The notes beneath the pieces are model-generated. The model saw only the letters and a list, made by a program, of their open reading frames with translations. It had not been told where the DNA came from and made no database searches. 64,000 nucleotides of DNA from an uncultured Acidobacteriaceae bacterium (GTDB taxonomy: Bacteria > Acidobacteriota > Terriglobia > Terriglobales > Acidobacteriaceae). Shown here piece by piece: positions 4,116 through 55,074 of the stretch; position 1 is the first letter of the stretch, and the number at the start of each line of letters is the position of its first letter. The stretch covers positions 357,821 to 421,820 of the forward strand of contig CAWFOD010000017.1 of NCBI GenBank assembly GCA_963817305.1, read 5' to 3'. A program made the translations under genes and the position numbers.

Positions 4116-5090
4116 ATGACACAAGTCTCGGGGACTCCGCACCTCATCGGTGTGGATGTGGGAGGCACCAAAGTAGCCGCCGGCCTGGTGAATGCTGCCG
4201 GCGAAATCACTTTTCAGACGCGAACTCCCATGGCAGCCAATGACGCTGCAGCCGGGTTGGCGGCGGTAATATCAGCGATCGATGCAGTTCGTGCTTCCTC
4301 TTCTTCCGCGACAGACAGCCCGATTTCGGGCATTGGCATCTGCGCTCCCGGGCCGCTCGATCCGCGCAATGGCGTCGTCATCAATCCGCCAAATCTTCCG
4401 GGTTGGCGAAATTTTCCGCTCGCTGCAGAAGTTTCCAAGGTCTACAAAGTTCCGGTTCGACTCGATAACGACGGAAACGCGGCTGCGTTAGCCGAGGCTC
4501 TATGGGGAGCTGGCCGCGGCTTTCGCAATGTTTTTTGCGCCACCATCGGTACTGGCATTGGAACCGGGATTGTTTTCGATGGCCGCATCTACCATGGCCG
4601 CACCGGCGCCGCCGCCGAAGGCGGTCACAACACAATTGACTATCGCGGTCCGCGTTGCGGATGCGGCAAGCTGGGTTGCATCGAGGCGCTGGCGTCCGGT
4701 CCGGCGATCGCGCGCAGAGCGGCGGAAAAGCTCGCCAAGCCAGGCCAGTCTTCGAAAATATTTGATCTGGCCGGCGGCCATCTCGATCGCATTAGCAGCG
4801 AGATGGTTGGCAAGGCTTATTCCGCGGGCGATAACTTGGCCAAAGAGGTTTTAGAAGAAACCGCGGGCCTCCTCGCCATTTGGCTGGGAAACATTGTGGA
4901 CTTACTTGAGCCGGACGTAATGATCATTGGAGGAGGCGCCGGCGCCATGCTGCGGCCCTTCTTCGATTTGATTCGCAATCGGCTGCCCGAGTGGTGCGTA
5001 AATTCCCATTGCCAGGAAGTTCCCCTGGTGGCTGCCCACTACGGTGCCGATGCCGGCATCGCCGGAGGCGCGGCACTCTGCCGAAATTAA
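4116..5090 (+). CDS. ROK family protein (glucokinase-like)
   Basis: 324 aa. N-terminal IGVDVGGTKVAAGLV ATP-binding motif, GTGIGTGIV, and the ROK Cys motif GHNTIDYRGPRCGCGKLGCIE. Confidence 0.85.
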   Translation: MTQVSGTPHLIGVDVGGTKVAAGLVNAAGEITFQTRTPMAANDAAAGLAAVISAIDAVRASSSSATDSPISGIGICAPGPLDPRNGVVINPPNLPGWRNFPLAAEVSKVYKVPVRLDNDGNAAALAEALWGAGRGFRNVFCATIGTGIGTGIVFDGRIYHGRTGAAAEGGHNTIDYRGPRCGCGKLGCIEALASGPAIARRAAEKLAKPGQSSKIFDLAGGHLDRISSEMVGKAYSAGDNLAKEVLEETAGLLAIWLGNIVDLLEPDVMIIGGGAGAMLRPFFDLIRNRLPEWCVNSHCQEVPLVAAHYGADAGIAGGAALCRN

Positions 5091-5305
5091 CTCTCGCTTT
5101 CCAGACCAGAGATTCCCGCCTGAACTTGAACTGATTAGGATCACGCTCGCACACGTCAGAGATCCCAACCAGCACGCCTTGTGACGTTCGCCGAACGATT
5201 GACACTCTCTCGCTTGGGGCGGTGAAGAGCTTAGGATTTTCAGCAACTTCTAAGCAAACCACCCTAGCTAGAACAGCGATTAATGCTTGACTCCGGTTTC
5301 GGCGC

Positions 5306-43822: not shown

Positions 43823-44110
43823 CTTGGACTCCGTTTGTGCCCAATCCGAGTATGGCGGTAAATGCTGATTTTGGGAACGATCCAGCAGTCGTTAAGCACT
43901 CGAAAGTAACGGCCCATCCGTGCAGATCTCTTCTAAGAGGGGTGGCCCACCCTTGCGCCTTTTGCAAGGGTGGGGATTCCCGAACCTGTCCAGTTTTTGA
44001 TTTCCCTTGCTGGTCCGGTCATCGGAGGCTTGAGGTCTGACCCGTGATCGCTCAGCAGAGCGGAATGCCATCCTTTCGCAAAAACCGCGAAAGGATGGGC
44101 CACCCGCCCT

Positions 44111-45000
44111 TGTCATCCTGAGGCAGGAGTCCTCGGCTACGCCGAGGACTCCCAACGAAGGACCTATGCAATTCGCCGACAGCACACAAGCTGGCGGGCA
44201 GCCTCACACGCGCTTCCATTTCCACGACCGAGGCTGCCCCACTCGTCGCGCTTTTCGACGAGTGGGAACCACGGACCTCAAAGTTCCGTTTCCGTCGCCA
44301 CCACAAGCGCCTGGGGCGGCCAATGAATATTCATGCGACTTCAGCCGACGCCCATTCTTCCGCATCTTGATTAACCACAATTGTCATCCTGAGGCAGCGG
44401 AGTCCTCGGCTACGCCGAGGACTCCCAACGAAGGACCTATGCAACTCGCCGACAGCACACAAGCTGGCGGCCCGCCTCACACGCGCTTCCATTTCCACGC
44501 CCGAGGCTGCCCCACTCGTCGCGTTTTTCGACGAGTGGGAACCACGGACCTCAAAGTTCCGTTTCCGTCGCCACCACAAGCGCCTGGGGCGGCCAATGAA
44601 TATTCATGCGACTTCAGCCGACGCCCATTCTTCCGCATCTTGATTAACCACAATTGTCATCCTGAGGCAGCGGAGTCCTCGGCTACGCCGAGGACTCCCA
44701 ATGAAGGACCTATGCAACTCGCCGACAGCACACAAGCTGGCGGGCAGCCTCACGCGCGCTTCCATTTCCACGCCCGAGGCTGCCCCACTCGTCGCGTTTT
44801 TCGACGAGTGGGAACCACGGACCTCAAAGTTCCGTTTCCGTCGCCACCACAAGCGCCTGGGGCGGCCAATGAATATTCATGTGGCTTCAACCGACGCATT
44901 CTTTCGCGTGTCGACCAACGCCGATTGTCATCCTGAGGCAGCGGAGTCCTCGGCTACGCCGAGGACTCCCAACGAAGGACCTATGCAATTCGCCGAGGCA
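44111..45000. repeat. tandem array of three ~271-273-bp units, each with two long hairpins
   Basis: The module tgtcatcctgaggcag..ggagtcctcggctacgccgaggactcccaacgaaggacctatgcaa recurs at 44111, 44382, 44655 and 44926. Each unit also carries cccactcgtcgcg(c)ttttcgacgagtggg. Related single hairpins lie at 43940-44105. Confidence 0.9.
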
Positions 45001-45332: not shown

Positions 45333-45437
45333 GAGATACCAGACGACGTTCGCCAAACACCTTTTATGATAAACAGAGCAATTGAAATGTCAAACGACGG
45401 AGAAATTCGGTAGTGGGCTGTTTTGAATTTATTGGTT

Positions 45438-45833
45438 TTAGCTTGGCTTCGGGAACAGGTAATTGACCACGATGTATCCTAGACCCAAAACGTCGGCAGT
45501 GGTAGTTCCTATGAAAGCGATTAGAACCGAATTATCGAGATGAAAACCCAAAACATGAAAACCTAAAACATGAAAACCTTCCAACATCAGAACGGCCACT
45601 ACTGAGATGAGCCATCCAGCGCAGAGAGGGAAAAGCTTTTTTGCCCAGCGGTCGCGATGTCCAGTGTTTACACTGAGCGCATTATTCTCTAGGCGTAGCC
45701 TATCCAATTCTATCTTTTGGGTTTCAATCTGGTAGAACTCCCCGGCCGCTGGCGCAGCCGGGGCCACAACGATGCTATCGACCGTGAGGGCGGCGGGTTG
45801 ATTACCCTCTAACGGCGACTGGTTGTCTGTCAT
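45438..45833 (-). CDS. small membrane protein, candidate toxin partner of the Panacea-domain protein
   Basis: 131 aa. Its start overlaps the upstream gene by 32 nt. Two C-terminal hydrophobic helices. Internal 15-bp x3 repeat (GFHVLGFHVLGFHL). Confidence 0.5.
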   Translation of the reverse strand: MTDNQSPLEGNQPAALTVDSIVVAPAAPAAGEFYQIETQKIELDRLRLENNALSVNTGHRDRWAKKLFPLCAGWLISVVAVLMLEGFHVLGFHVLGFHLDNSVLIAFIGTTTADVLGLGYIVVNYLFPKPS

Positions 45834-46335
45834 GCTGGGATGCGGCGAGTCGCTCGAAATATTCCTTTATCACGTTGTCCGGAATATCCGTATTGCGAAC
45901 GTCCCTGTCGTAAACCTGACTCCACGGCGAATTTTCCGCGTGAGTCATGCTCGATAATTGACTGGCTGAATAACGACCATACAACTGCCAGACCCTAGCG
46001 ATGATTTGACGGGCGAGCATGTCTCGCGCAGGATCACCGCTATTAAGGCGATAGGCTCTAGTGACTACCTGTCCGTTCTCGAAATAAGCTTCGCCTGCTG
46101 GCGATGTGATTGGTCCACTCCCGTAACGCCTGAACTCGCTATACAGAGAAGGGATCACAGGCCCCCATTGCCACGCTTCGACACGTTCATCAAGAAGCCG
46201 TTCTCCAGTAATTGCCATGTACCAGCCGTAGGCAAAATAAACCAGCTTTTGCAACTGCATTGGAGTGAGCTGTTTGCCTTCGTTCTTGGCGAGCTCTAGG
46301 AACTCATTAGCTACTTGTTTTGAGGTGTACGGCAT
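45802..46335 (-). CDS. Panacea (DUF4065, SocA/GepA-like) domain antitoxin-type protein
   Basis: 177 aa. MPYTSKQVANEFLELAKNEGKQLTPMQLQKLVYFAYGWYMAITGERLLDERVEAWQWGPVIPSLYSEFRRYG matches the DUF4065 pattern closely. Confidence 0.8.
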   Translation of the reverse strand: MPYTSKQVANEFLELAKNEGKQLTPMQLQKLVYFAYGWYMAITGERLLDERVEAWQWGPVIPSLYSEFRRYGSGPITSPAGEAYFENGQVVTRAYRLNSGDPARDMLARQIIARVWQLYGRYSASQLSSMTHAENSPWSQVYDRDVRNTDIPDNVIKEYFERLAASQHDRQPVAVRG

Positions 46336-46458
46336 AACACGGTCTCCATCAGGTTAGATGGTGGAAGGGGAGCGAGAGATGCTACGCATGGCCAATGGCG
46401 GAAGCACCCGCTGAAGGGAGCCTACCACTAAATACTAAAACTGTCATCAATTTTTTAT

Positions 46459-47312
46459 TCATGCGGCTTTTAGCGTTGCAGTCGAACGTAGATGTACCAA
46501 TTCCCCCAAACTCCAAACGTGGTCCGCGAGGCCCGCTTCCATCGCAGGAGTGCCCCGCAATGTTTGATGAATGCGGCAAAAATTGTAGTACACATGATAG
46601 ATGGCAACCATATGGCAGTGGTTTTCAAACTTCTTCGAAAATGCCTTCGTCAAGCGTGTAAACCGTCGGACACCCATCCGCAAATTGAGATTTTGCCTCC
46701 CCACATAACTCGTGGAAATGTACTGGCGATCAGGGTCACCGCTCAAGATACCAGTGCAAATACCAATGCACTGCGCAGGGCTGTAGCGGCTATCAGGATT
46801 ATCGGCGGGAGAGCCGTACAACTTTATCAGCATCGCGTAATCCACTTCATTCCGAAAGCACCTTCGACAGCTTCCGCGTAAGCGCGGTGACCGTCAGTCG
46901 TGATCTGAATGCGCGTGGTCACACGCGACGCCAAATCCTCCATGAATTTGCAGGCCCACGACGCATCGCGCCCGCCACACAGGTACGAGAGAATCAGCTT
47001 GGAATCTGCGTCAATCGCGGTCCAAGTCCATACGCTCCCTGCTCCCGCTCCTTGCTTTGATTCAGGAACGTTCTTCTCTTTCGCGTAGCAGAAACTCCAC
47101 ACTTCATCACATTGCACGCGCTGGACGCGGACGCCACGCACTGCAGAATCGTGAAACGCCGCGCACGCCGCGCCCATGTCACGAATGAGTTTGAGAACCG
47201 CGTCCTTACAGACGCCAGTCATACGCACCGTGGAACGGATGCTGTTTCCCTCTATCAAGGCTCCGATTACCTGTGGGCGACGTTCATTTGTTAGGCGGTT
47301 CATGACAATCAT
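46459..47312 (-). pseudogene. IS1-family-like DDE transposase, split by a frameshift near 46845-46855
   Basis: ORF 46827-47312 has an HTH, then ..VQCDEVWSFCYAKEKNV..WTWTAIDADSKL..ITTDGHRAYAEAVEGAFG. ORF 46459-46845 has ..DYAMLIKLYG..RQNLNLRMGVRRFTRLTKAFSKKFENH... One base is missing relative to an intact frame. Confidence 0.75.
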
Positions 47313-47366
47313 TATGCTTGAGCGTTAAAGCAATGTCAAGCACAATCGCAGTTTGTTATAGGTTTA

Positions 47367-47396
47367 TTGACAATGTACCCCTTAAAGTGATATGAT
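47367..47396 (+). promoter_or_regulatory. sigma70-like promoter
   Basis: TTGACA (47367-47372), 18-nt spacer, TATGAT (47391-47396). It faces the 47631 gene. Confidence 0.35.
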
Positions 47397-47630
47397 TTAG
47401 AAATACTAAGGGCCATCGACCCTGGATAGGCTTGCCGGCATGCCCAGAGCGAATGGCCCGAAAGGTGGTTCAGATGATAAGAAGTTTCGCCCCTAAAAAG
47501 GGCTAAGGGCAAAGGAAACTCCCTACACGATCTGCCAGAGCGGGGGCGTTCCAGACGTGGTGCGTCCCCCAATTTGGCTTTATCAAATATACCACGAAAC
47601 GGGCCGATTTTCAATAACGAGGTTAAGGTC

Positions 47631-48167
47631 ATGAGCAACGAACAGAATCCATTTGAAGCTGCAATTGCCGCGCTAGAAGCACGTCGTGCGCAGGTTAATG
47701 CGGAGATCGATGCGGACGTTGCCAAGCTGCGCGAGATCGGAGAACGCATGTCTGGTATGGCCCTAACATCTGGTGCAACGCCGAGCACGCCAGCCAAGAT
47801 CGAAAAGGACACGTTTTTCAATATGACGTTGCCAGATGCTGCCAAGAAGTTTCTCGCAATGTCTAACAGGAAGACGCAAACTACGAATGCGATTATTGAC
47901 GCCCTTGAAAAGGGTGGCCTGAAAAAGACTACCTATGCATCGATGTACGCTAGCCTGAGCCGTCGCGAAAATAATGTAGGCGACATCGTGAACGTAAATG
48001 GCGACTGGGGGCTTCCTGAGTGGTACGGGGCTAAACCAAAACCCAAAAAACGCAGTGCTGTGTCACTTAACCCTAAAGACTTCGAGGACGACGACGCGGC
48101 GATTGCAGAACAACACGACCAGCAGCTACGAGACGAGGAAGAATTGAAGGTCAACACTGAAACCTAG
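47631..48167 (+). CDS. hypothetical protein (cargo of the IS1-like element)
   Basis: ORF 47574-48167. ATG at 47631 after a GAGG RBS (MSNEQNPFEAAIAALEARRAQ..). Acidic C-terminus. Confidence 0.5.
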   Translation: MSNEQNPFEAAIAALEARRAQVNAEIDADVAKLREIGERMSGMALTSGATPSTPAKIEKDTFFNMTLPDAAKKFLAMSNRKTQTTNAIIDALEKGGLKKTTYASMYASLSRRENNVGDIVNVNGDWGLPEWYGAKPKPKKRSAVSLNPKDFEDDDAAIAEQHDQQLRDEEELKVNTET

Positions 48168-48403
48168 CTCGGCTCGGCCTTTTCCGCCTTCCACCTTACC
48201 CTAGCAGCTTGGCTTGCAATCTCCCTTTTGCGCTCGGGACTCAGTTTTTCCGCTCGGCGTTTTCCGCCGACCTTTCCGCCTAGCTTCCCGAGGGCTACAG
48301 CCGCCGGATTCTTTTTCTTAGCCTTCAATGGTGCGCCTGTCGCGATCTCCACAACCCTCAGCGCATTCTGTGCGAAATCTCTCTTGCTTGACCGTTTAAC
48401 CAT
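48164..48403 (-). CDS. small basic protein (79 aa), phage/plasmid-type KGG..RW tail
   Basis: NPAAVALGKLGGKVGGKRRAEKLSPERKREIASQAARVRW is a motif I recall from mobile-element proteins; this is from memory only. Confidence 0.45.
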   Translation of the reverse strand: MVKRSSKRDFAQNALRVVEIATGAPLKAKKKNPAAVALGKLGGKVGGKRRAEKLSPERKREIASQAARVRWKAEKAEPS

Positions 48404-48511
48404 GATTCAGTTTCCCAGACTTACATTGCTACGCGCAACACTAATCTGGCTAAAATTCAAAACAGCCCACTACCAGAAATTCGGAAACGCGTTTCGTCGC
48501 ATAATCGTGTC

Positions 48512-48544: not shown

Positions 48545-48571
48545 GATAGCTTTTAAGTTAGAATCTGCCTC

Positions 48572-50755
48572 TCAATCCCCCGCCACCGGCTCACCCACTT
48601 CCGGTTTCGGAGCTGCAGCGATTCCACCGTTCGGCTTGCCCAACGCGCCCAGCGGAATAAATCCATTTTCCGCCACCGCAGGTTTTTCTTTCAGCACAAC
48701 TTCACGATACAGCGAAGCCATGCGCGCGTTGTAAGCCTCATCATTTTTCTGCGGTCCGCGATGTCCCGGAATCGGAGTCTCGGAGTGATCGACCGCCAAA
48801 GCCGCCTTCGCATCCCGTGCCCGCTTCTTCTCCTCGCGCGCATTCTTCGCGATGCCCAGCTTGTCGAGATCGTGCTGCAGTTCGTTGGTGACGATGTCCT
48901 CACGCAACAGCAGCGAGTGCGCCTCGTCCTCCATCTTCACTTTCTTTCCGCCGGCAAAAATCTCGTGCCGTCCATGCTCTTCGTACCACTTGGTAAGCGT
49001 GGCCGTCATGTGCATCTTCTCGATAATGTTTCTCCAGCCCACGCCCGTGTTGTAAGCGCAGAATGAAATCTCGCCCTCCTGCGTCGCATAAGGAATAATG
49101 CACTGCTCGGTTCTGCGGAAGTCATAGTTGAACAAATCCTGGAACCACATTCCCGCGATGAACAGGAAATTCCAGCGATCGGTTGTACGCCGCTTCATCA
49201 CATCCTCGACCGTCCGGTCCGGCCCAACTTTGCCGTAGTTCTTTCCCGTGATGTGATAGTTCTTGTCGAACTTCTTCAGCAGATCCATCAGCTTGAAATG
49301 TGTCGGCGATTGGAACGGATCGTAATTCTTCATCAGGCACAGCGCCATGCCAAACCCGGTCAAGAATTTTCCGCGCGACGCATCGTTCACCTTGGCGATG
49401 TCTTTCGCCAGTTGATCCCCCGCCAAAAACGCGGTCACCGGCACGGCCTCTTTGGTTTCCTTATCAATCATCACCGCCATCCCCGTCCCGCAATTCGGGT
49501 GACAACCGCAGGATAGTTGGCCCCAGTCGTTTTTTGCGTCGTTGGCGTGCATTAGATCTGCCCAGTCGCTGAATGTTCCCATGAAGGAAATGGGGAACCA
49601 GTCGCGGCTGGGTTCGCCTAATCCGGTTTGATTTTTTACGTCGTGCGCCAGGTGAGAGAGCGTGTAGCGCTGGGCCTGGCGGCGATCGTCGGTGACGGCT
49701 TCGTCGCGTCCGGTGAAGCTTACTGGTTGGAAACTCAGGAAGCTGATCGTCTTCGGATTGTCGAGCGCGAACTTGATGATGCGTCCGACTTGTTCGTTGT
49801 TGATGCCGTTAACTATGGTTACGACCGGAACGATTTCTACTCCGGCTTTGTGCAAGTTCTCGATCGCTTTTAATTTCACATCGAACAAATTTCCGACCAT
49901 GCGGTGCGCGTTGGCAGCGTTTCCGATGCCATCGAATTGCAAGTACGCGTAACGCATTCCTGCTTCGACTGCCTGCTGGCAGAATTCAAAACTTTTTGCG
50001 AATTCAATTCCATTCGTTGCTGCTTGCACGGAGTTGTATCCGACTTTGCGCGCGTAGCGCACGGCGTCCAGGAAATATGGAGACAACGTAGGCTCGCCGC
50101 CGGAAAACTGAACGCTCATCTGACGTCGCGGCTTGATGGTAATCGCGTTGTCGAGCATCGTCTTGATTTCTTCCCACTGCAGTTCGTGTACGAAGCCGAC
50201 CTGGTTTGCGTCCATGAAGCAGGGATCGCACATCATGTTGCAGCGGTTGGTGAGATCGATGGTCAGCACGGAGCCGCGTCCATACTTCACGGTGGAGGAA
50301 CCGTGATGGTGAAGCTTCTCGTCGTTATGCGCGACGATGTCGCGTCCGGGGAAAACATCTTCGAGATGCTTCGAGAAATCGGTGTCGATCGACATCACGT
50401 CTTCGAAGTGGCCGTGCTTCGGACAATCTTTCACCATCAGAATTTTTCCGTCGCGCTCGACGATGGTGGCCTTGATCTCGCCGATTTTTTCGTTCATCAA
50501 GACTTCGTGCGGAAGTTTGCCATCGAGAATCTGCTGACGGATTTCGGGCACACACTTCGGGCAAAGAGAATCGGTGGAGCGCGGCCAGCCGAGCGGCGGC
50601 TTGGATTTTTCGTAGGACTTGAGCAGAGGCTTGTCGGACCATTTCGGGGTTGGGGACGCACCTGGGTTGATGCGGTTCAAACGATCGAACACTACCCAAG
50701 CGCCTTTGGCGGCGACTGTGACTGCTTTCTCTACGTACTTAATCGGCTTGCGCAT
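48572..50755 (-). CDS. radical SAM protein, tetraether-lipid-synthase (Tes / GDGT-MAS, COG1964)-like
   Basis: 727 aa. N-terminal Zn-ribbon-like TDSLCPKC...VKDCPKHGHFED, then IDLTNRCNMMCDPCF (CxxxCxxC) and VQFSGGEPTLSP..ATNGIEFAK. The radical SAM call is firm; the Tes-like call rests on my recollection of the family pattern. Confidence 0.75.
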   Translation of the reverse strand: MRKPIKYVEKAVTVAAKGAWVVFDRLNRINPGASPTPKWSDKPLLKSYEKSKPPLGWPRSTDSLCPKCVPEIRQQILDGKLPHEVLMNEKIGEIKATIVERDGKILMVKDCPKHGHFEDVMSIDTDFSKHLEDVFPGRDIVAHNDEKLHHHGSSTVKYGRGSVLTIDLTNRCNMMCDPCFMDANQVGFVHELQWEEIKTMLDNAITIKPRRQMSVQFSGGEPTLSPYFLDAVRYARKVGYNSVQAATNGIEFAKSFEFCQQAVEAGMRYAYLQFDGIGNAANAHRMVGNLFDVKLKAIENLHKAGVEIVPVVTIVNGINNEQVGRIIKFALDNPKTISFLSFQPVSFTGRDEAVTDDRRQAQRYTLSHLAHDVKNQTGLGEPSRDWFPISFMGTFSDWADLMHANDAKNDWGQLSCGCHPNCGTGMAVMIDKETKEAVPVTAFLAGDQLAKDIAKVNDASRGKFLTGFGMALCLMKNYDPFQSPTHFKLMDLLKKFDKNYHITGKNYGKVGPDRTVEDVMKRRTTDRWNFLFIAGMWFQDLFNYDFRRTEQCIIPYATQEGEISFCAYNTGVGWRNIIEKMHMTATLTKWYEEHGRHEIFAGGKKVKMEDEAHSLLLREDIVTNELQHDLDKLGIAKNAREEKKRARDAKAALAVDHSETPIPGHRGPQKNDEAYNARMASLYREVVLKEKPAVAENGFIPLGALGKPNGGIAAAPKPEVGEPVAGD

Positions 50756-51098: not shown

Positions 51099-51746
51099 CT
51101 ATGGAACCCGGATGTGGATAATCCGATCCACGACGCCGTTGGACTGACCGTGAATACAGCGCACGTTTAGCTTACTCATCTCTTCTGGGTCGCGGTATGT
51201 GCCATTCTGATCGAGCCGCTGCGCGCTGTAGTACTCGGGGTAGCAGGAAGCGATCACAAATTCGACAAACTGGCGGGGCCCAGGCACGCCTGAGACTGCA
51301 AACCTCGTCCTAGGAAACCCGCTGATGTGCATGTGGGACTCGTGGTGCAGTACCCCGGCTGCGTACTGTTGGGTGTAATCAAACCTTAGCCAGGGGATGA
51401 ACACGTCGGCGAAGTCGGGTAGAGGTCCGGGAGACAGAAGATCTTCCTCTTCCATGGGCAATTGAGCCTTGTAGAACGCGAGGCGCACCATCCGGATATT
51501 GTCGTTACCGTCAAATTCATATAAGAGCTGAAAGACGGAGCCGTCATCTGCGCACTGGAAGCTGTACTGTTTCTCTTCGACAACGGATCGGACCTTTTCA
51601 TAATTCACTGGCTCTCTAATAATGCCTCCCGAGTAGCGGTTCCAAGCTATTCGGGATCCGCTCCGGCAGAATCGGGGATTGACGAGCAGCGATTTCCAGT
51701 CCCAGAAACAATCTCGAACTTGGGATTCGACGTCGGCCGGACTCAC
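51099..51746 (-). CDS. hypothetical protein coupled to the SF1 helicase (possibly DUF2290-like)
   Basis: 215 aa. Its GTG start overlaps the helicase stop (GTGA). His-rich motif GVLHHESHMHISGFP. No domain I can verify by eye. Confidence 0.55.
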   Translation of the reverse strand: MSPADVESQVRDCFWDWKSLLVNPRFCRSGSRIAWNRYSGGIIREPVNYEKVRSVVEEKQYSFQCADDGSVFQLLYEFDGNDNIRMVRLAFYKAQLPMEEEDLLSPGPLPDFADVFIPWLRFDYTQQYAAGVLHHESHMHISGFPRTRFAVSGVPGPRQFVEFVIASCYPEYYSAQRLDQNGTYRDPEEMSKLNVRCIHGQSNGVVDRIIHIRVP

Positions 51747-53899
51747 TTTGCAGCCTTCTGAAGCAGCTTGAGCAGGGTCTTTCGGTCACCTTCGCTCAGA
51801 TCCGCTAGGGCTCCGGGAGCCAGAGCCTTGAGGCTTTCGACCGCCGCTTTAGCCGTCTTGACGGCTCGCCGCCGCCGCGTCGTCTCAGACGCGTCGAGCT
51901 TTCGGATTTTATCCATGTCGGGAAAAACGAACTTGAACCGAGGAATCTCATCAAGAATCTGTTTAAGCTCTTTTATTGCTTCGACCATTTTTCGGCCGGT
52001 GCCGGTTATTCTTACCCATCCCTTCGATCTGGATATGGACGTGAAGGCTCGATTGCGAGTCTCGATCTCCTCGGCGAAATCGTACAGCGATTGGAAACTC
52101 AATATATAAACGACTGGTGCCTCGTTTCCTTTCGCTCTGAACACCGTCGAAAGAGTGACCATGCCGGCCTCGGCGAAATCCGAGGCGTCGTCCACGAGTC
52201 CCGGGATAGTGGAAGCAATGCTCAGCTGCATCAGCATGCTTTGCAGCTGCATCATATAATCCTTCGCGCGCCTTGAATCCAGCGAGATGACCACAATCTG
52301 TTCGGGCGCAACCGCCTCATCTTTTATGTCCGAAGAGATGGAATTGGCAACCCACTGTAGCTCTGCTGCCAAGGTATTGAAGCTCTTTCCGGAGACCAGT
52401 TTCTGTTTGCCCGTGTACATCTGAGCAATTCGGCTTGGACTGTTTTCCGGTGGACGAAAAAGAACAACCTGGCTGCCCTGGTCAAGGTGCCCTGATTCAA
52501 TTTCGTATCCGACCGCCTTCCACGAGGTTTCGTCCCCCAGCATCTGAACTGGGCCCCGGGGGTTGTGGATTCCCAGCCCGACCGCGTGCGCGAGCATAAG
52601 TACCGTCTGAGGGCACCGATAGGATTTTAGGAGAACCAGGTCTCGGTCCATACCCTCGTCCTCGTCGACGTCCAGCGAAACGAGGGGCTTACCTTGCTCG
52701 TCGACGCCAAAAAGTTCTGCCGGATCGGGGATTTCGAGGGAGGCTAGGCTTTGCAGTTCATCATAGGCCCAATAAATGGCGTGGGGAGGCCTAGACAGCT
52801 TGTACAGAATGGGGAAGAACTCTTTGGGGAAGTCTTGGGCCTCGTCTACTAGGATGTAGTCGTACTCAGGATCGATTCTTTGTTGAAGAGCCGCTAAGCA
52901 GCAAGCCCGGAATGGTGTAAGGGAGTCCTGAGCCTTGGCCGACCGAAAATCCAGCGCCCTCGAGCCCTGTCTTTGAGTCAGATCATAGTACACTCCGGGT
53001 CGTGATCGGCCACCCCAGGCGTGGCGTATGTGGAGGATGTCCCAATCCGGATCGACGTCGCTGTAAAAGCGGAAAAAGCGAGTCACGAGATTGCGGGCTT
53101 GGTTGTAGAGGCTTTGTGTATTGAACGTTAGGAGGAGCTTTTTGTCGGGGAAGTGATGGTGAATATTAGCTGCCTTCATTGCCAGGAGGACGGTCTTTCC
53201 AGTGCCCGCGAGGCCGCGGATGCGTTGCGGCCCGGGCGGTATTTGGATGGCGACTTTGTTCTGCTGTTCGTCGAGCAATGCTATATCCGTATCTAGCATT
53301 TTTATCGCGCTGCCGAGGGTGTCCGCCGTTCTCGCCGTCCCGCCCGGGTTTCTTGTCAGAGGGATGGCGGTTTGAAGGACCGATCTTGCGAGTCGCCACT
53401 GTTGGCTGTCGAGCGGCTGATTAAGTCTTAGGAGGTGTTCGTTGGCACCCTCGCCTCCGGACCAAATGACATTCGCAAGTGGTCCGAATTTCTTGCAGAA
53501 TTCCGATTTTGTGCATAAAGGGAGGCCCACGACCGGTTTCGGGTCGAGGCGCCGGCGGAGGTCGCGCACTTTATCGAATCTTGTCCGGAGCTCTGTGGCC
53601 AGGTCGTCAATAACGACGCCCGGAGAGTCAATTTCTATTTCGTGCTTTCCTTCCTGAATCCACCATGTGTCGTCTTCGATAGCAACGATGCGCTCAAGCG
53701 TGATATCGAAACACTTCACCACGATGGGCTGGTAGAGCTGAAGTAGGAAGACTAGGTCCGGCGTCCCAGAAACACCCACGATGGGATATTTGTAGTAACA
53801 GATGCCTTCGGCTTTGCCAGCAGCTTCCTCTATCCACTGGAAGGTCGTCTTAACAGGAAGATCGCCAGCGAATCCCGAGAGGGACGCTAGAAATTCCAT
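51743..53899 (-). CDS. superfamily 1 (UvrD/Rep-like) helicase with an N-terminal nuclease-like (NERD/PD-(D/E)xK-like) region
   Basis: 718 aa. Walker A GLAGTGKT, motif II ILVDEAQDF, YRCPQTV, STVFRAKGNEAPVVYIL, RNRAFTSISRSKGWVRI. The N-terminal ..TPDLVFLL..IVVKCFD.. resembles a D..(E/x)xK nuclease core; that part is inference. Confidence 0.8.
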   Translation of the reverse strand: MEFLASLSGFAGDLPVKTTFQWIEEAAGKAEGICYYKYPIVGVSGTPDLVFLLQLYQPIVVKCFDITLERIVAIEDDTWWIQEGKHEIEIDSPGVVIDDLATELRTRFDKVRDLRRRLDPKPVVGLPLCTKSEFCKKFGPLANVIWSGGEGANEHLLRLNQPLDSQQWRLARSVLQTAIPLTRNPGGTARTADTLGSAIKMLDTDIALLDEQQNKVAIQIPPGPQRIRGLAGTGKTVLLAMKAANIHHHFPDKKLLLTFNTQSLYNQARNLVTRFFRFYSDVDPDWDILHIRHAWGGRSRPGVYYDLTQRQGSRALDFRSAKAQDSLTPFRACCLAALQQRIDPEYDYILVDEAQDFPKEFFPILYKLSRPPHAIYWAYDELQSLASLEIPDPAELFGVDEQGKPLVSLDVDEDEGMDRDLVLLKSYRCPQTVLMLAHAVGLGIHNPRGPVQMLGDETSWKAVGYEIESGHLDQGSQVVLFRPPENSPSRIAQMYTGKQKLVSGKSFNTLAAELQWVANSISSDIKDEAVAPEQIVVISLDSRRAKDYMMQLQSMLMQLSIASTIPGLVDDASDFAEAGMVTLSTVFRAKGNEAPVVYILSFQSLYDFAEEIETRNRAFTSISRSKGWVRITGTGRKMVEAIKELKQILDEIPRFKFVFPDMDKIRKLDASETTRRRRAVKTAKAAVESLKALAPGALADLSEGDRKTLLKLLQKAAK

Positions 53900-54519: not shown

Positions 54520-55074
54520 TTATGGATGGCGTTCTTGCTCCGGATAATCTTCCTCCGGATAATCTTCCTCTGGATAATCTTCCTCTGGATAATCCTCGTC
54601 TGGATAGTCTTCGTCGATGCTGGCGTGGAGGGTTAGGGGAGGGTCGAGTTGGTGCCAGGCTTCGCGGTATTTTTCGAGGCGCATGATGCGGGCGTTGCGA
54701 TGGGGATAGAAGCGGAGCATGGGTTGGGGAGTGCAGACTTCGACGGGGATGATGTACCAGATGTCGAGCGGGACGACGTGGGCGGCGATGAAATCGATGT
54801 CGCGCTTGGTGTAGACGGCGCGGCGTTTGCCGACGGTGTAGGTGGCGCGGGTTTCATAGGCATCGGCGCGGAGGGAGTCGGTGCACTTGATCTGTATCCG
54901 GAAGAGGTGAACTGCTGGTTGGGGGCGGTTGTCGAGGATGAAATCGTAACGTTCGGAGTCTCCCCAGGGCTTGGAGATGGCGAAGCAGCGCTGGCTGGCC
55001 TGGTAGAGGAATGCGGCTTCGGAGCGCTCGCCGGTGCGTTTGGTGTTGGGGCGGAGGGGATCGCGCTTCGGCAT
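54520..55074 (-). CDS. PD-(D/E)XK endonuclease (group I intron-associated type, PDDEXK_5-like) with a C-terminal (D/E)EDYP x5 repeat
   Basis: 184 aa. TGERSEAAFLYQASQRCFAISKPWGDSERYDFILDN...FRIQIKCT matches the family pattern. The tail is DEDYPDEDYPEEDYPEEDYPEEDYPEQERHP. Confidence 0.65.
   Translation of the reverse strand: MPKRDPLRPNTKRTGERSEAAFLYQASQRCFAISKPWGDSERYDFILDNRPQPAVHLFRIQIKCTDSLRADAYETRATYTVGKRRAVYTKRDIDFIAAHVVPLDIWYIIPVEVCTPQPMLRFYPHRNARIMRLEKYREAWHQLDPPLTLHASIDEDYPDEDYPEEDYPEEDYPEEDYPEQERHP
54541..54615. repeat. 15-bp tandem repeat x5 (coding, acidic pentapeptide)
   Basis: (c/t)ggataatcttcctc repeated five times; the last two copies are diverged. Confidence 0.9.

Follow-up and report, generated by a model that had tools for sequence, protein, structure and literature searches.

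A probable transporter insertion sequence of a distant IS1 branch, with a decayed transposase gene, in an Acidobacteriaceae genome

INTRODUCTION

In the genome of an uncultured Acidobacteriaceae bacterium (GenBank assembly GCA_963817305.1, contig CAWFOD010000017.1), the DNA downstream of a gene resembling that of tetraether lipid synthase (Tes) holds five open reading frames (ORFs) between perfect inverted repeats, one of them a broken transposase gene. We analysed a stretch of 64,000 nucleotides that includes this locus (positions 357,821 to 421,820 of the contig; hereafter the 64-kb window, or the window, with coordinates counted from its first letter). The locus raises the question of what kind of element this is, whether the copy can still move by itself and what its additional genes would do. 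We conclude, with a probability of roughly 85%, that it is a defective copy of a transporter insertion sequence (tIS), from a distant branch of the IS1 family that has a single-ORF transposase and is common in Terriglobales (Acidobacteriota). The kinds of arrangement that meet here are known ones: tISs, toxin-antitoxin (TA) pairs in transposons, and PanAT systems near transposases.

ISfinder's IS1 family also includes single-ORF members, one subgroup, ISMhu11, reaches sizes of up to ~4.6 kb, and IS1595 subgroups with passenger genes are listed as well. Insertion sequence (IS) derivatives with passenger genes are defined as tISs (PMC9330008, PMC7986276). Tabulated features of IS1 are GGnnnTG ends and duplications of 8–9 bp (PMC10425158, Table 8), and GGnnnTG ends with an 8-bp duplication are common to IS6/IS26 and IS1 (PMC6807381). 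Classical IS1 is 768 bp long, with the genes insA and insB′ joined by a programmed −1 frameshift at an A6C motif; InsA represses by binding the ends, and mobilisation in trans of any DNA flanked by the left and right inverted repeats has been shown by experiment (PMC12903888).

RESULTS

Boundaries of the element and its insertion site

The element is 3,066 bp long with its terminal inverted repeats included (Table 1). Its two 22-bp arms, read from the sequence and recovered in a repeat search, are exact reverse complements at 22/22 positions, the left arm reading GGTAGTGGGCTGTTTTGAATTT. The 8-mer AGAAATTC abuts both arms on the outside, as expected of a target duplication. Length, repeats and duplication are thus exactly as given in a preliminary description that had been made from the sequence alone. 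Both ends begin GGTAGTG and fit the GGnnnTG pattern. Allowing up to three mismatches, the 22-mer matches the 64-kb window only at the two arms, with 0 matches expected from 100 shuffles; no further end, internal or elsewhere in the window, was found even at up to six mismatches. All five ORFs lie inside the repeats and the single target duplication lies just outside them. The GC content of the element is 51.4%, against 56.7% for the window.

The insertion point is intergenic and no gene is disrupted. It is bracketed by two minus-strand terminator-like hairpins, at 48545–48524 and 45334–45304, and the element begins 97 bp downstream of the Tes-like radical S-adenosylmethionine (SAM) gene, which ends at 48572. 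The placement between two minus-strand terminators, downstream of this gene, agrees with the preliminary description.

Table 1. Features of the 3,066-bp element and its target duplication, in window coordinates.
Feature	Coordinates	Strand	Remarks
Target-site duplication, left copy	45401..45408	.	AGAAATTC, identical 8-mer outside each arm
Terminal inverted repeat, transposase-distal (cargo) end	45409..45430	+	GGTAGTGGGCTGTTTTGAATTT; 22/22 complementary to 48453–48474
131-aa putative PanT-type membrane toxin	45438..45833	-	Soluble N-terminus; hydrophobic segments at ~residues 66–97 and 103–123
PanA antitoxin (SocA/Panacea, DUF4065), 177 aa	45802..46335	-	Pfam PF13274
Spacer, transposase stop to panA	46336..46458	-	Probably holds the cassette's own promoter
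IS1-family DDE transposase pseudogene	46459..47312	-	Frames 46827–47312 and 46459–46845; relatives start at MNRL, 47303
Divergent control region, transposase gene/ORF178	47313..47630	.	Sigma-70-like sites, consensus matches only
ORF178, variable accessory gene	47631..48167	+	Long N-terminal helix, HARE-HTH-like winged helix, acidic C-terminal helix
ORF79, conserved basic ~80-aa helical protein beside one inverted repeat	48164..48403	-	Core gene of the IS branch (probable)
Terminal inverted repeat, ORF79 end	48453..48474	-	Exact reverse complement of 45409–45430
Target-site duplication, right copy	48475..48482	.	AGAAATTC; Logan contig L002 stops exactly 30 nt past 48474

The same ends bound elements in other genomes

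The comparisons drew on a collection of species-representative (GTDB) genomes, metagenome contigs of the Joint Genome Institute (JGI), a plasmid collection, viral contigs and Logan contigs. Among the species-representative genomes the 22-bp end was found in 89 stretches, nearly all of them from metagenome-assembled genomes (MAGs) of Terriglobales, Acidobacteriaceae or Sulfotelmatobacter from peat and soil. The GTDB representatives with the repeat do not include the genome from which the window comes. A few further carriers are bins assigned to Desulfomonilaceae, ‘delta proteobacterium’ and Binataceae. None of the viral contigs contains the repeat, and an association of the element with phages was dropped on that ground.

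Further copies in relatives, which the preliminary description had suggested looking for, were found in number. We identified 25 independent insertions at unrelated sites, each with a perfect 8-bp duplication and with the same repeat, which differs at 0–2 positions, or at up to 5 where a copy is diverged or short. An 8-bp duplication is found at every family member whose limits are well defined, and all relatives, the plasmid elements described below included, have ends of the GGnnnTG form. Eleven of these contain a transposase gene and measure 2,329–5,363 bp, 13 are short elements of 65–874 bp that resemble miniature inverted-repeat transposable elements (MITEs) and have kept their duplications, and one is a 1,196-bp cassette. 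Only ~22–24 bp at each tip are conserved across the family, whose 22-bp ends can be written GGTAGTGGGC(T/G)GTTTTGAATTT. No strong target-site motif emerged: among the 27 listed duplications (25 independent), only 5 contain GAAAT/ATTTC, and the flanking sequences are unrelated.

Read in the orientation of the transposase, the usual layout is an inverted repeat, a homolog of ORF79, a variable divergent gene, the transposase gene, between zero and two variable downstream genes, and the second inverted repeat. The ORF79 module is at the opposite end in the element L004/L097. Passengers vary from copy to copy: no other full-length element has the genes for PanA and the membrane protein, and just two others have ORF178. 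Elements with a transposase gene, differing accessory genes and 8-bp duplications are thus bounded by the same repeat, which bears out the earlier description of the window's element as cargo-carrying and tIS-like. Like a tIS, it has a single transposase, IS-type terminal repeats, a target duplication and non-transposition genes within, and its passengers vary between copies; it differs in that ORF79 is an additional, conserved core gene and that the transposase gene has variable positions on both sides, features for which we found no published description.

These data also bear on whether the arrangement could be a chance or composite one, for example a simple IS beside unrelated genes with outer repeats that belong elsewhere. 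No ~1-kb transposase-only form was seen among the paired elements of the family, and the internal sequence other than the transposase gene and ORF79 is unrelated between elements, both of which would suit such an arrangement. Against this, no internal copy of the repeat lies next to the transposase gene at up to six mismatches, the duplications stand directly outside the outer repeats in all 25 independent insertions, and the same outer ends are used by eleven transposase-containing elements. We therefore give a composite origin almost no credence and treat the 3,066 bp as one element.

Diverged elements with GGTA(G/A)TGTCTCAGTTTGAA ends and 8-bp duplications were found on a Hoeflea plasmid (4,224 bp, duplication gatgattg) and on an Acidiphilium plasmid (2,634 bp, duplication aagccgag). 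Both carry ORF79 homologs, at 43–44% identity. The branch would thus span Acidobacteriota and Alphaproteobacteria.

Two observations concern the surroundings of individual copies. The largest element, of 5,363 bp (L004 1229–6591, the same as L097 515–5877, in MAG MFD09286.bin.1.36), has an IS21-type insertion (rve and IstB) nested within it and splits a D12-class DNA methyltransferase gene beside an EcoRV-like endonuclease gene, thereby interrupting a restriction-modification locus. On the Acidiphilium multivorum plasmid NZ_CP041717 (L189), an annotated RES-toxin/Xre-antitoxin pair at 4383–5221 abuts the right end of the element; it lies just outside the right inverted repeat and was rejected as cargo.

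Family placement of the transposase

The two frames of the transposase gene were joined for comparison with other proteins. The repaired transposase has thousands of homologs, the best of which are 75–89% identical, are encoded by single ORFs of ~281 aa, come from Terriglobales/Sulfotelmatobacter and carry the source name ‘IS1 family transposase’. In Pfam, the IS1 model PF03400 gives 26.4 bits, over a gathering score of 24.1, and 30.6 bits for an intact relative (P0011). The best NCBIfam model is likewise IS1 (NF033558), with 53.8 bits for the repaired transposase and 61.3 for P0011. The nearest annotated relatives in the plasmid collection (tblastn) share 54–58% identity and are labelled IS1 family. 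Neither the repaired transposase nor P0011 matched the IS1595 models DDE_Tnp_IS1595 and Zn_ribbon_IS1595 at E ≤ 1, in Pfam or in NCBIfam. In the N-terminus only weak matches to a helix-turn-helix (HTH) were obtained (HTH_28, E 0.002–0.05), and inspection of the alignment of relatives revealed no CxxC pairs in the first 60 residues.

The ends and the duplication would fit the IS6/IS26 family equally (PMC6807381), and the transposase does match IS6 models weakly: NF033587 of NCBIfam at 30.4 bits and DDE_Tnp_IS240 (PF13610) of Pfam at 22.5 bits. The first of these scores is far short of the 125-bit cutoff and is exceeded by the 53.8 bits of IS1 in the same collection; the second is below its own threshold of 27, whereas the Pfam IS1 score is above the corresponding one. 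The source names of the homologs point the same way. Membership of IS6/IS26 rather than IS1 is accordingly very improbable.

Thus, the IS1-like character stated in the preliminary description was upheld by the two model collections, the GGnnnTG ends and the 8-bp duplication, with the addition that the branch is a distant one. With classical IS1 the element shares these features and repeats of a similar length (~22–30 bp). It differs in that the transposase is one ORF of ~281 aa, with no A6C motif and apparently no zinc-finger motif, and in that the branch has a separate conserved gene for a protein of ~80 aa (ORF79) and elements of 2.3–5.4 kb. The range given for IS1, 740–1180 bp with transposition genes only, is exceeded by the window's element, with its 3,066 bp and four extra ORFs. 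The absence of an insA/insB′ organisation excludes the classical IS1 group and does not exclude the IS1 family. We take membership of IS1 to hold at the superfamily or family level only, as a distant single-ORF branch.

The transposase gene has decayed

The preliminary description had called the transposase frameshifted; the two frames are there, and the shift can be narrowed to a single-nucleotide deletion. The frames meet at GAFGM|EVDYAML, a stretch that relatives read straight through as GAFGM(D/E)VDYAML. In place of the expected ATG-GAA-GTG the window has ATGAAGTG, which places the deletion at about 46848/46849, in a 2-nt (CC) run. A programmed frameshift was ruled out: all relatives are single ORFs, neither A6C nor any other slippery motif is present, and the shift falls within the catalytic domain. 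The frameshift is thus read as a lesion.

A second change affects the active site itself. The codon for the catalytic glutamate (Glu) has been replaced by GGG (glycine, Gly) at 46699–46701, so that the window reads YVGRQN in place of YVERQN. The Glu of YVERQNLNLR is invariant in 14 of 14 aligned relatives, and the arginine (Arg) at +7 is the usual DDE signature. At columns that are invariant among the relatives, the window has seven private substitutions; the relatives have 0–5, and the closest of them 0–1. The Gly codon is confirmed by an independent short-read contig, L001 (Logan, run ERR12035940), which covers 46843–45381 of the window at 100% identity. A second contig of this run, L002, covers 46899–48504 and differs from the window at two positions, both synonymous and both in the transposase gene.

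Between the two contigs lies a 55-nt stretch, 46844–46898, where the frameshift site is found and where the coding sequence corresponds to the best-conserved part of the transposase. The gap would reflect either k-mers shared with other copies of the family or sequence variants in the run.

Could this copy nevertheless be autonomous, the frameshift being an assembly error in the CC run, or bypassed, and the catalytic Gly being tolerated? The position of the frameshift within the 55-nt gap, the shortness of the run, the synonymous nature of both differences from the Logan copy and the perfection of the inverted repeats all leave some room for this. On the other side, the Gly codon is present in an identical short-read contig and replaces an invariant residue, with Arg at +7; there are seven private changes against 0–1 in the closest relatives; and the shift has no slippery motif in a family of single ORFs. 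The long neighbouring ORFs are intact, for example the 727-aa Tes-like gene, and this speaks against widespread indel errors in the assembly. An autonomous copy is, on balance, quite improbable; the frameshift and the Glu-to-Gly replacement together indicate that the window copy is non-autonomous.

Broken transposase genes were also seen in the full-length members L064 (2244–4991) and L093 (1174–4435), in pieces of 155 aa and of 169 and 73 aa, respectively. Decayed copies seem, from such sequences, to be common in the family.

Possible traces of an uninterrupted target site

Besides further copies, the preliminary description had proposed looking for the empty site, for which the predicted junction is ...caaacgacggAGAAATTCggaaacgcg.... 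This search did not recover it. The exact 22-mer junction is absent from the JGI metagenome contigs, and none of eighty loci encoding Tes relatives (74–97% amino-acid identity) spans the junction; at the nearest of these loci (~85% DNA identity) similarity is lost 35–40 bp before it. An exact look-up of the Tes protein gave no match.

The ends of the two Logan contigs provide a different kind of trace. A Logan assembly is built to contain no 31-mer of an accession more than once, and it leaves out contigs of up to 150 bp (PMC12424806). L002 stops at 48504 (48474 + 30) and L001 at 45381 (45411 − 30); because the element and the right flank both start with GG, a 2-nt offset is predicted on the left, exactly as seen. 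The contig ends therefore fall, to the base, where k-mers of the filled site give way to k-mers that run from the left flank through AGAAATTC into the right flank, as they would if the read set also contained the uninterrupted site. This implies that an empty-site allele would coexist in the reads of ERR12035940, in a polymorphic population or a second strain.

A Panacea protein paired with a small membrane protein

The downstream slot of the window's element is occupied by two overlapping genes. PanA matches PF13274 over the whole domain (69.4 bits against a cutoff of 25.7; E 6.1e-19), the NCBIfam SocA antitoxin model at 122.9 bits, below the 190-bit cutoff, and phrog_1281 at E 1e-43. The gene for the 131-aa membrane protein overlaps the 3′ end of panA by 32 nt. 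This protein has 46 homologs, and Pfam, NCBIfam and PADLOC gave no family match for it. In three unrelated neighbourhoods, homologs at 87%, 62% and 48% identity each overlap a Panacea gene at its 3′ end. Because the pairing is kept in unrelated contexts, the two genes appear to form a self-contained cassette.

Validated PanT toxins include several small membrane-depolarising proteins that PanA neutralises by complex formation; one of the validated toxins has an N-terminal coiled coil and C-terminal transmembrane helices, and many PanATs adjoin transposases (PMC8832971). The pair described here resembles them in that one operon of two genes encodes a Panacea protein and a small protein with C-terminal transmembrane helices, that the pair is kept while its neighbourhood changes, and that its site is near transposases. 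It differs in that the partner, a putative toxin by its architecture, has no detectable family, and in that the SocA score of PanA is below the cutoff. By analogy with the validated pairs, the 131-aa protein would be a membrane toxin neutralised by PanA. TA modules have been reported from Tn3-family transposons (Lima-Mendez et al. 2020, as cited in PMC8832971). An addiction-type gene pair inside a transposon is common to both cases; the transposase family and mechanism are different ones here, and the window's element has no resolvase or res site.

The pair might instead serve in abortive infection or another phage-related function, or consist of a membrane protein and its dedicated regulator, rather than being a TA addiction module. 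The 131-aa protein matches no family, PanA matches phage families (phrog_1281) and is named ‘uncharacterized phage-associated protein’ by one source, and TA systems are increasingly tied to phage defence (PMC10440598). The overlapping bicistron, the Panacea partner and the soluble N-terminus followed by C-terminal transmembrane helices are as in validated PanATs such as that of Helicobacter (PMC8832971). We therefore find it rather unlikely that the pair is something other than a TA module; the TA and phage-related readings are in any case not mutually exclusive. The earlier proposal of a toxin-antitoxin or defence-type module accordingly stands in its first half, with the pair kept in three unrelated contexts. 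The second half is not supported: PADLOC found no defence-system match in the element's cargo, and such an assignment was set aside.

A distant pair (48% identity; L107, 3337–6167) adjoins an IS1595-family transposase gene and a P63C-domain gene and may be another IS-associated copy of the cassette.

Derivatives of the lineage that bears the pair

Mobile insertion cassettes and MITEs are further kinds of element that can be compared with copies lacking a transposase. The present family resembles them in having transposase-less derivatives with the same repeats, some of which carry genes. One such derivative was recovered from two JGI metagenomes (L102/L103): the 1,196-bp cassette mentioned above, which has the same ends, at one mismatch apiece, and a duplication of its own, cgaatctg. 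Over the first 148 bp it matches the inverted repeat and the start of ORF79 in the window's element. There follow the last bases of the transposase gene, panA, the membrane-protein gene and the inverted repeat, with 86.7% identity to window positions 46465–45405. The structure of this junction shows the cassette to be an internal-deletion derivative of an element of the window's type, inserted or mobilised in trans at another site. As the similarity begins at 46465, the spacer before panA travels with the cassette.

Two 5′-truncated remnants at other loci keep the junction of transposase end, panA, membrane-protein gene and inverted repeat. In one (L191/L192) the remnant starts at transposase residue 33 and the membrane-protein gene is frameshifted; in the other (L193) it retains just about the last 90 bp of the transposase gene.

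Movement in trans of defective or transposase-less copies is a further likeness to IS1: it has been shown for IS1 itself (PMC12903888), which makes the same process plausible for the window's family, where the MITE-like elements and the cassette, with their duplications, point to it.

ORF79, ORF178 and the region between

The preliminary description had given the content of the element correctly, with the Panacea and membrane-protein genes on one side of the transposase gene and two further small genes on the other. One of the latter, ORF79, is probably a core gene of the family and not cargo. A tblastn search found homologs in 28 loci, which is essentially every full-length element; the protein database holds 732 homologs, and 26 columns are invariant across 28 aligned sequences. 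Since the Hoeflea and Acidiphilium plasmid elements carry homologs too, ORF79 appears to be an old and integral part of the branch. Its predicted structure has four helices (predicted local distance difference test, pLDDT, 71.5), for which a fold search against the PDB gave no match. Derivation of ORF79 from the N-terminus of the transposase, in the manner of InsA, was ruled out by an hhalign probability of 0.6%, and no relationship was found between ORF79 and ORF178. ORF79 is probably a DNA-binding or regulatory accessory factor.

ORF178 starts at the ATG at 47631 rather than at an upstream TTG, given that its relatives begin MSNEQNPF. The AlphaFold model has a pLDDT of 83.5, and of more than 95 over residues 60–135. 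The top Foldseek match is the N-domain of RNA polymerase delta (8x6g_E; template modelling score 0.61, probability 1.0, E 0.027), with the Rok DNA-binding domain and other winged-helix regulators also retrieved. A sequence profile matches RNA polymerase delta at E 0.003, and the Pfam HARE-HTH domain is matched over its full length at a sub-threshold E of 0.043. Taken together, the model and these matches suggest that ORF178 is probably DNA-binding. There are 770 cluster representatives at E ≤ 1e-3, and the two other full-length elements that have ORF178 are L064 and L004/L097.

Elsewhere in the family ORF178 is replaced by 268–312-aa proteins without a family, a STAND/AAA ATPase, a Clp-fold protease or an spr1629-type repressor/antitoxin. 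Other fillings of the downstream slot are a 99-aa protein with an aspartyl protease, pairs of ~120–159 and 89–97 aa and a DUF2299 membrane protein; the slot can also be empty. The divergent upstream ORFs were considered as one homologous family and this was not supported: in BLASTP, ORF178 and the L003 protein share only the motif ‘NG-WGL--WY’, and the 268-aa type gave nothing.

The region between ORF178 and the transposase gene appears to contain promoter-like sites in both directions. The minus-strand sigma-70-like site, TTGACA-17-CATAAT at 47339–47311, ends 7 nt before the MNRL start codon, and the plus-strand site, TTGACA-18-TATGAT with TG, is at 47367–47396. Rfam gave no match to a structured RNA in the element.

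Neighbouring genes and repeats

The Tes-like protein (727 aa, 48572–50755, minus strand) is intact and unaffected by the insertion. It scores 316 bits with NCBIfam NF045702 (tetraether lipid synthase Tes), under the 450-bit cutoff, and has very many close relatives, at 74–97% identity, in soil and peat metagenomes.

At 51099–53899 and 54520–55074, both on the minus strand, there are matches to PADLOC models that form a pair, PDLC02998/02999 and PDLC03002 (437 bits for PDLC03002); the proteins are a DUF2290 protein and a UvrD-like helicase of 718 aa. This pair is a candidate for anti-phage defence and lies 2.6 kb from the element, with a PD-(D/E)XK or homing-endonuclease-like gene close by.

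On the other side, a 273-bp unit at 44126–44944 (and 44080–44996) is present in three tandem copies (98% and 84% identity) and a fourth, partial copy, each unit with a palindrome rich in GC, GGAGTCCTCGGCTACGCCGAGGACTCC. Part of the unit, ~60 nt long, recurs in the other Acidobacteria loci L112, L123 and L128, which suggests a dispersed repeat resembling repetitive extragenic palindromes or MITEs. A 256-aa ORF that spans these repeats is probably spurious.

DISCUSSION

The repeats, the duplication, the family of elements bounded by the same ends and the damaged transposase gene all point to a defective tIS of a distant single-ORF IS1 branch. Several observations weigh against this interpretation. 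The likeness to curated IS1 models is weak: the PF03400 match spans only ~40 residues around the catalytic Glu, the NF033558 scores fall under the 100-bit equivalog cutoff, and classical enterobacterial IS1 was not reached by tblastn in the plasmid collection. The frameshift site is outside the coverage of L001 and L002, making an assembly error possible at that point. No second copy and no intact transposase of the family was found in the 64-kb window, and the empty target site was not recovered as sequence from the JGI contigs or the 80 Tes-relative loci.

A defective tIS of this branch would have worked as follows. In active members, the DDE transposase of ~281 aa, with its putative N-terminal HTH, would recognise the 22-bp ends and join them to target DNA whose strands it cuts 8 bp apart; repair of the gaps would produce the 8-bp duplications, which are observed, while the chemistry is that expected of the family. 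Everything between the ends would travel along. The ends, the transposase and ORF79 would be constant, and the genes on either side of the transposase interchangeable: in the window copy, ORF178 is the divergent upstream gene and PanA with the overlapping membrane protein fills the downstream slot. If the validated PanAT pairs are a guide, the membrane protein would act by depolarising the membrane whenever PanA is not bound to it, and the pair may stabilise the element or the host locus, or act in phage defence. This copy would have inserted into intergenic DNA between the two terminators downstream of the Tes-like gene, and its transposase would have decayed afterwards, through the frameshift, the change of the catalytic Glu to Gly and the other private changes. 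It could now be moved only by a related transposase supplied in trans, as would be the case for the many transposase-less derivatives of the family.

A wider reading, which we offer tentatively and with less than even confidence, is that this is an undescribed IS1-related branch, marked by 22-bp ends beginning GGTAGTG, a single-ORF transposase and ORF79, that acts as a modular shuttle. The variable positions on both sides of its transposase would be refilled time and again with two-gene TA-like or defence-like modules and DNA-binding proteins, and it would shed gene-carrying cassettes without a transposase that go on moving in trans. If so, ORF79 would represent a novel type of accessory or regulatory factor for transposition.

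For the window itself, the finding means that the 3-kb block beside the Tes-like lipid gene would be foreign and mobile in origin, and now immobile alone. It offers a well-delimited case of a putative TA pair inside an IS-type element in Acidobacteria, a phylum with little-studied mobile elements, and its lineage can be traced at four loci, as a full copy, a deletion cassette and truncated remnants. The organisation of the family, with ORF79, swappable positions and gene-carrying cassettes, would merit a dedicated survey if ISfinder holds no description of it. The 22-bp ends and ORF79 provide search handles for cataloguing the family, and with them any part of ORF79 in transposition, and any spread of TA or defence modules by such elements in soil bacteria, could be tested.

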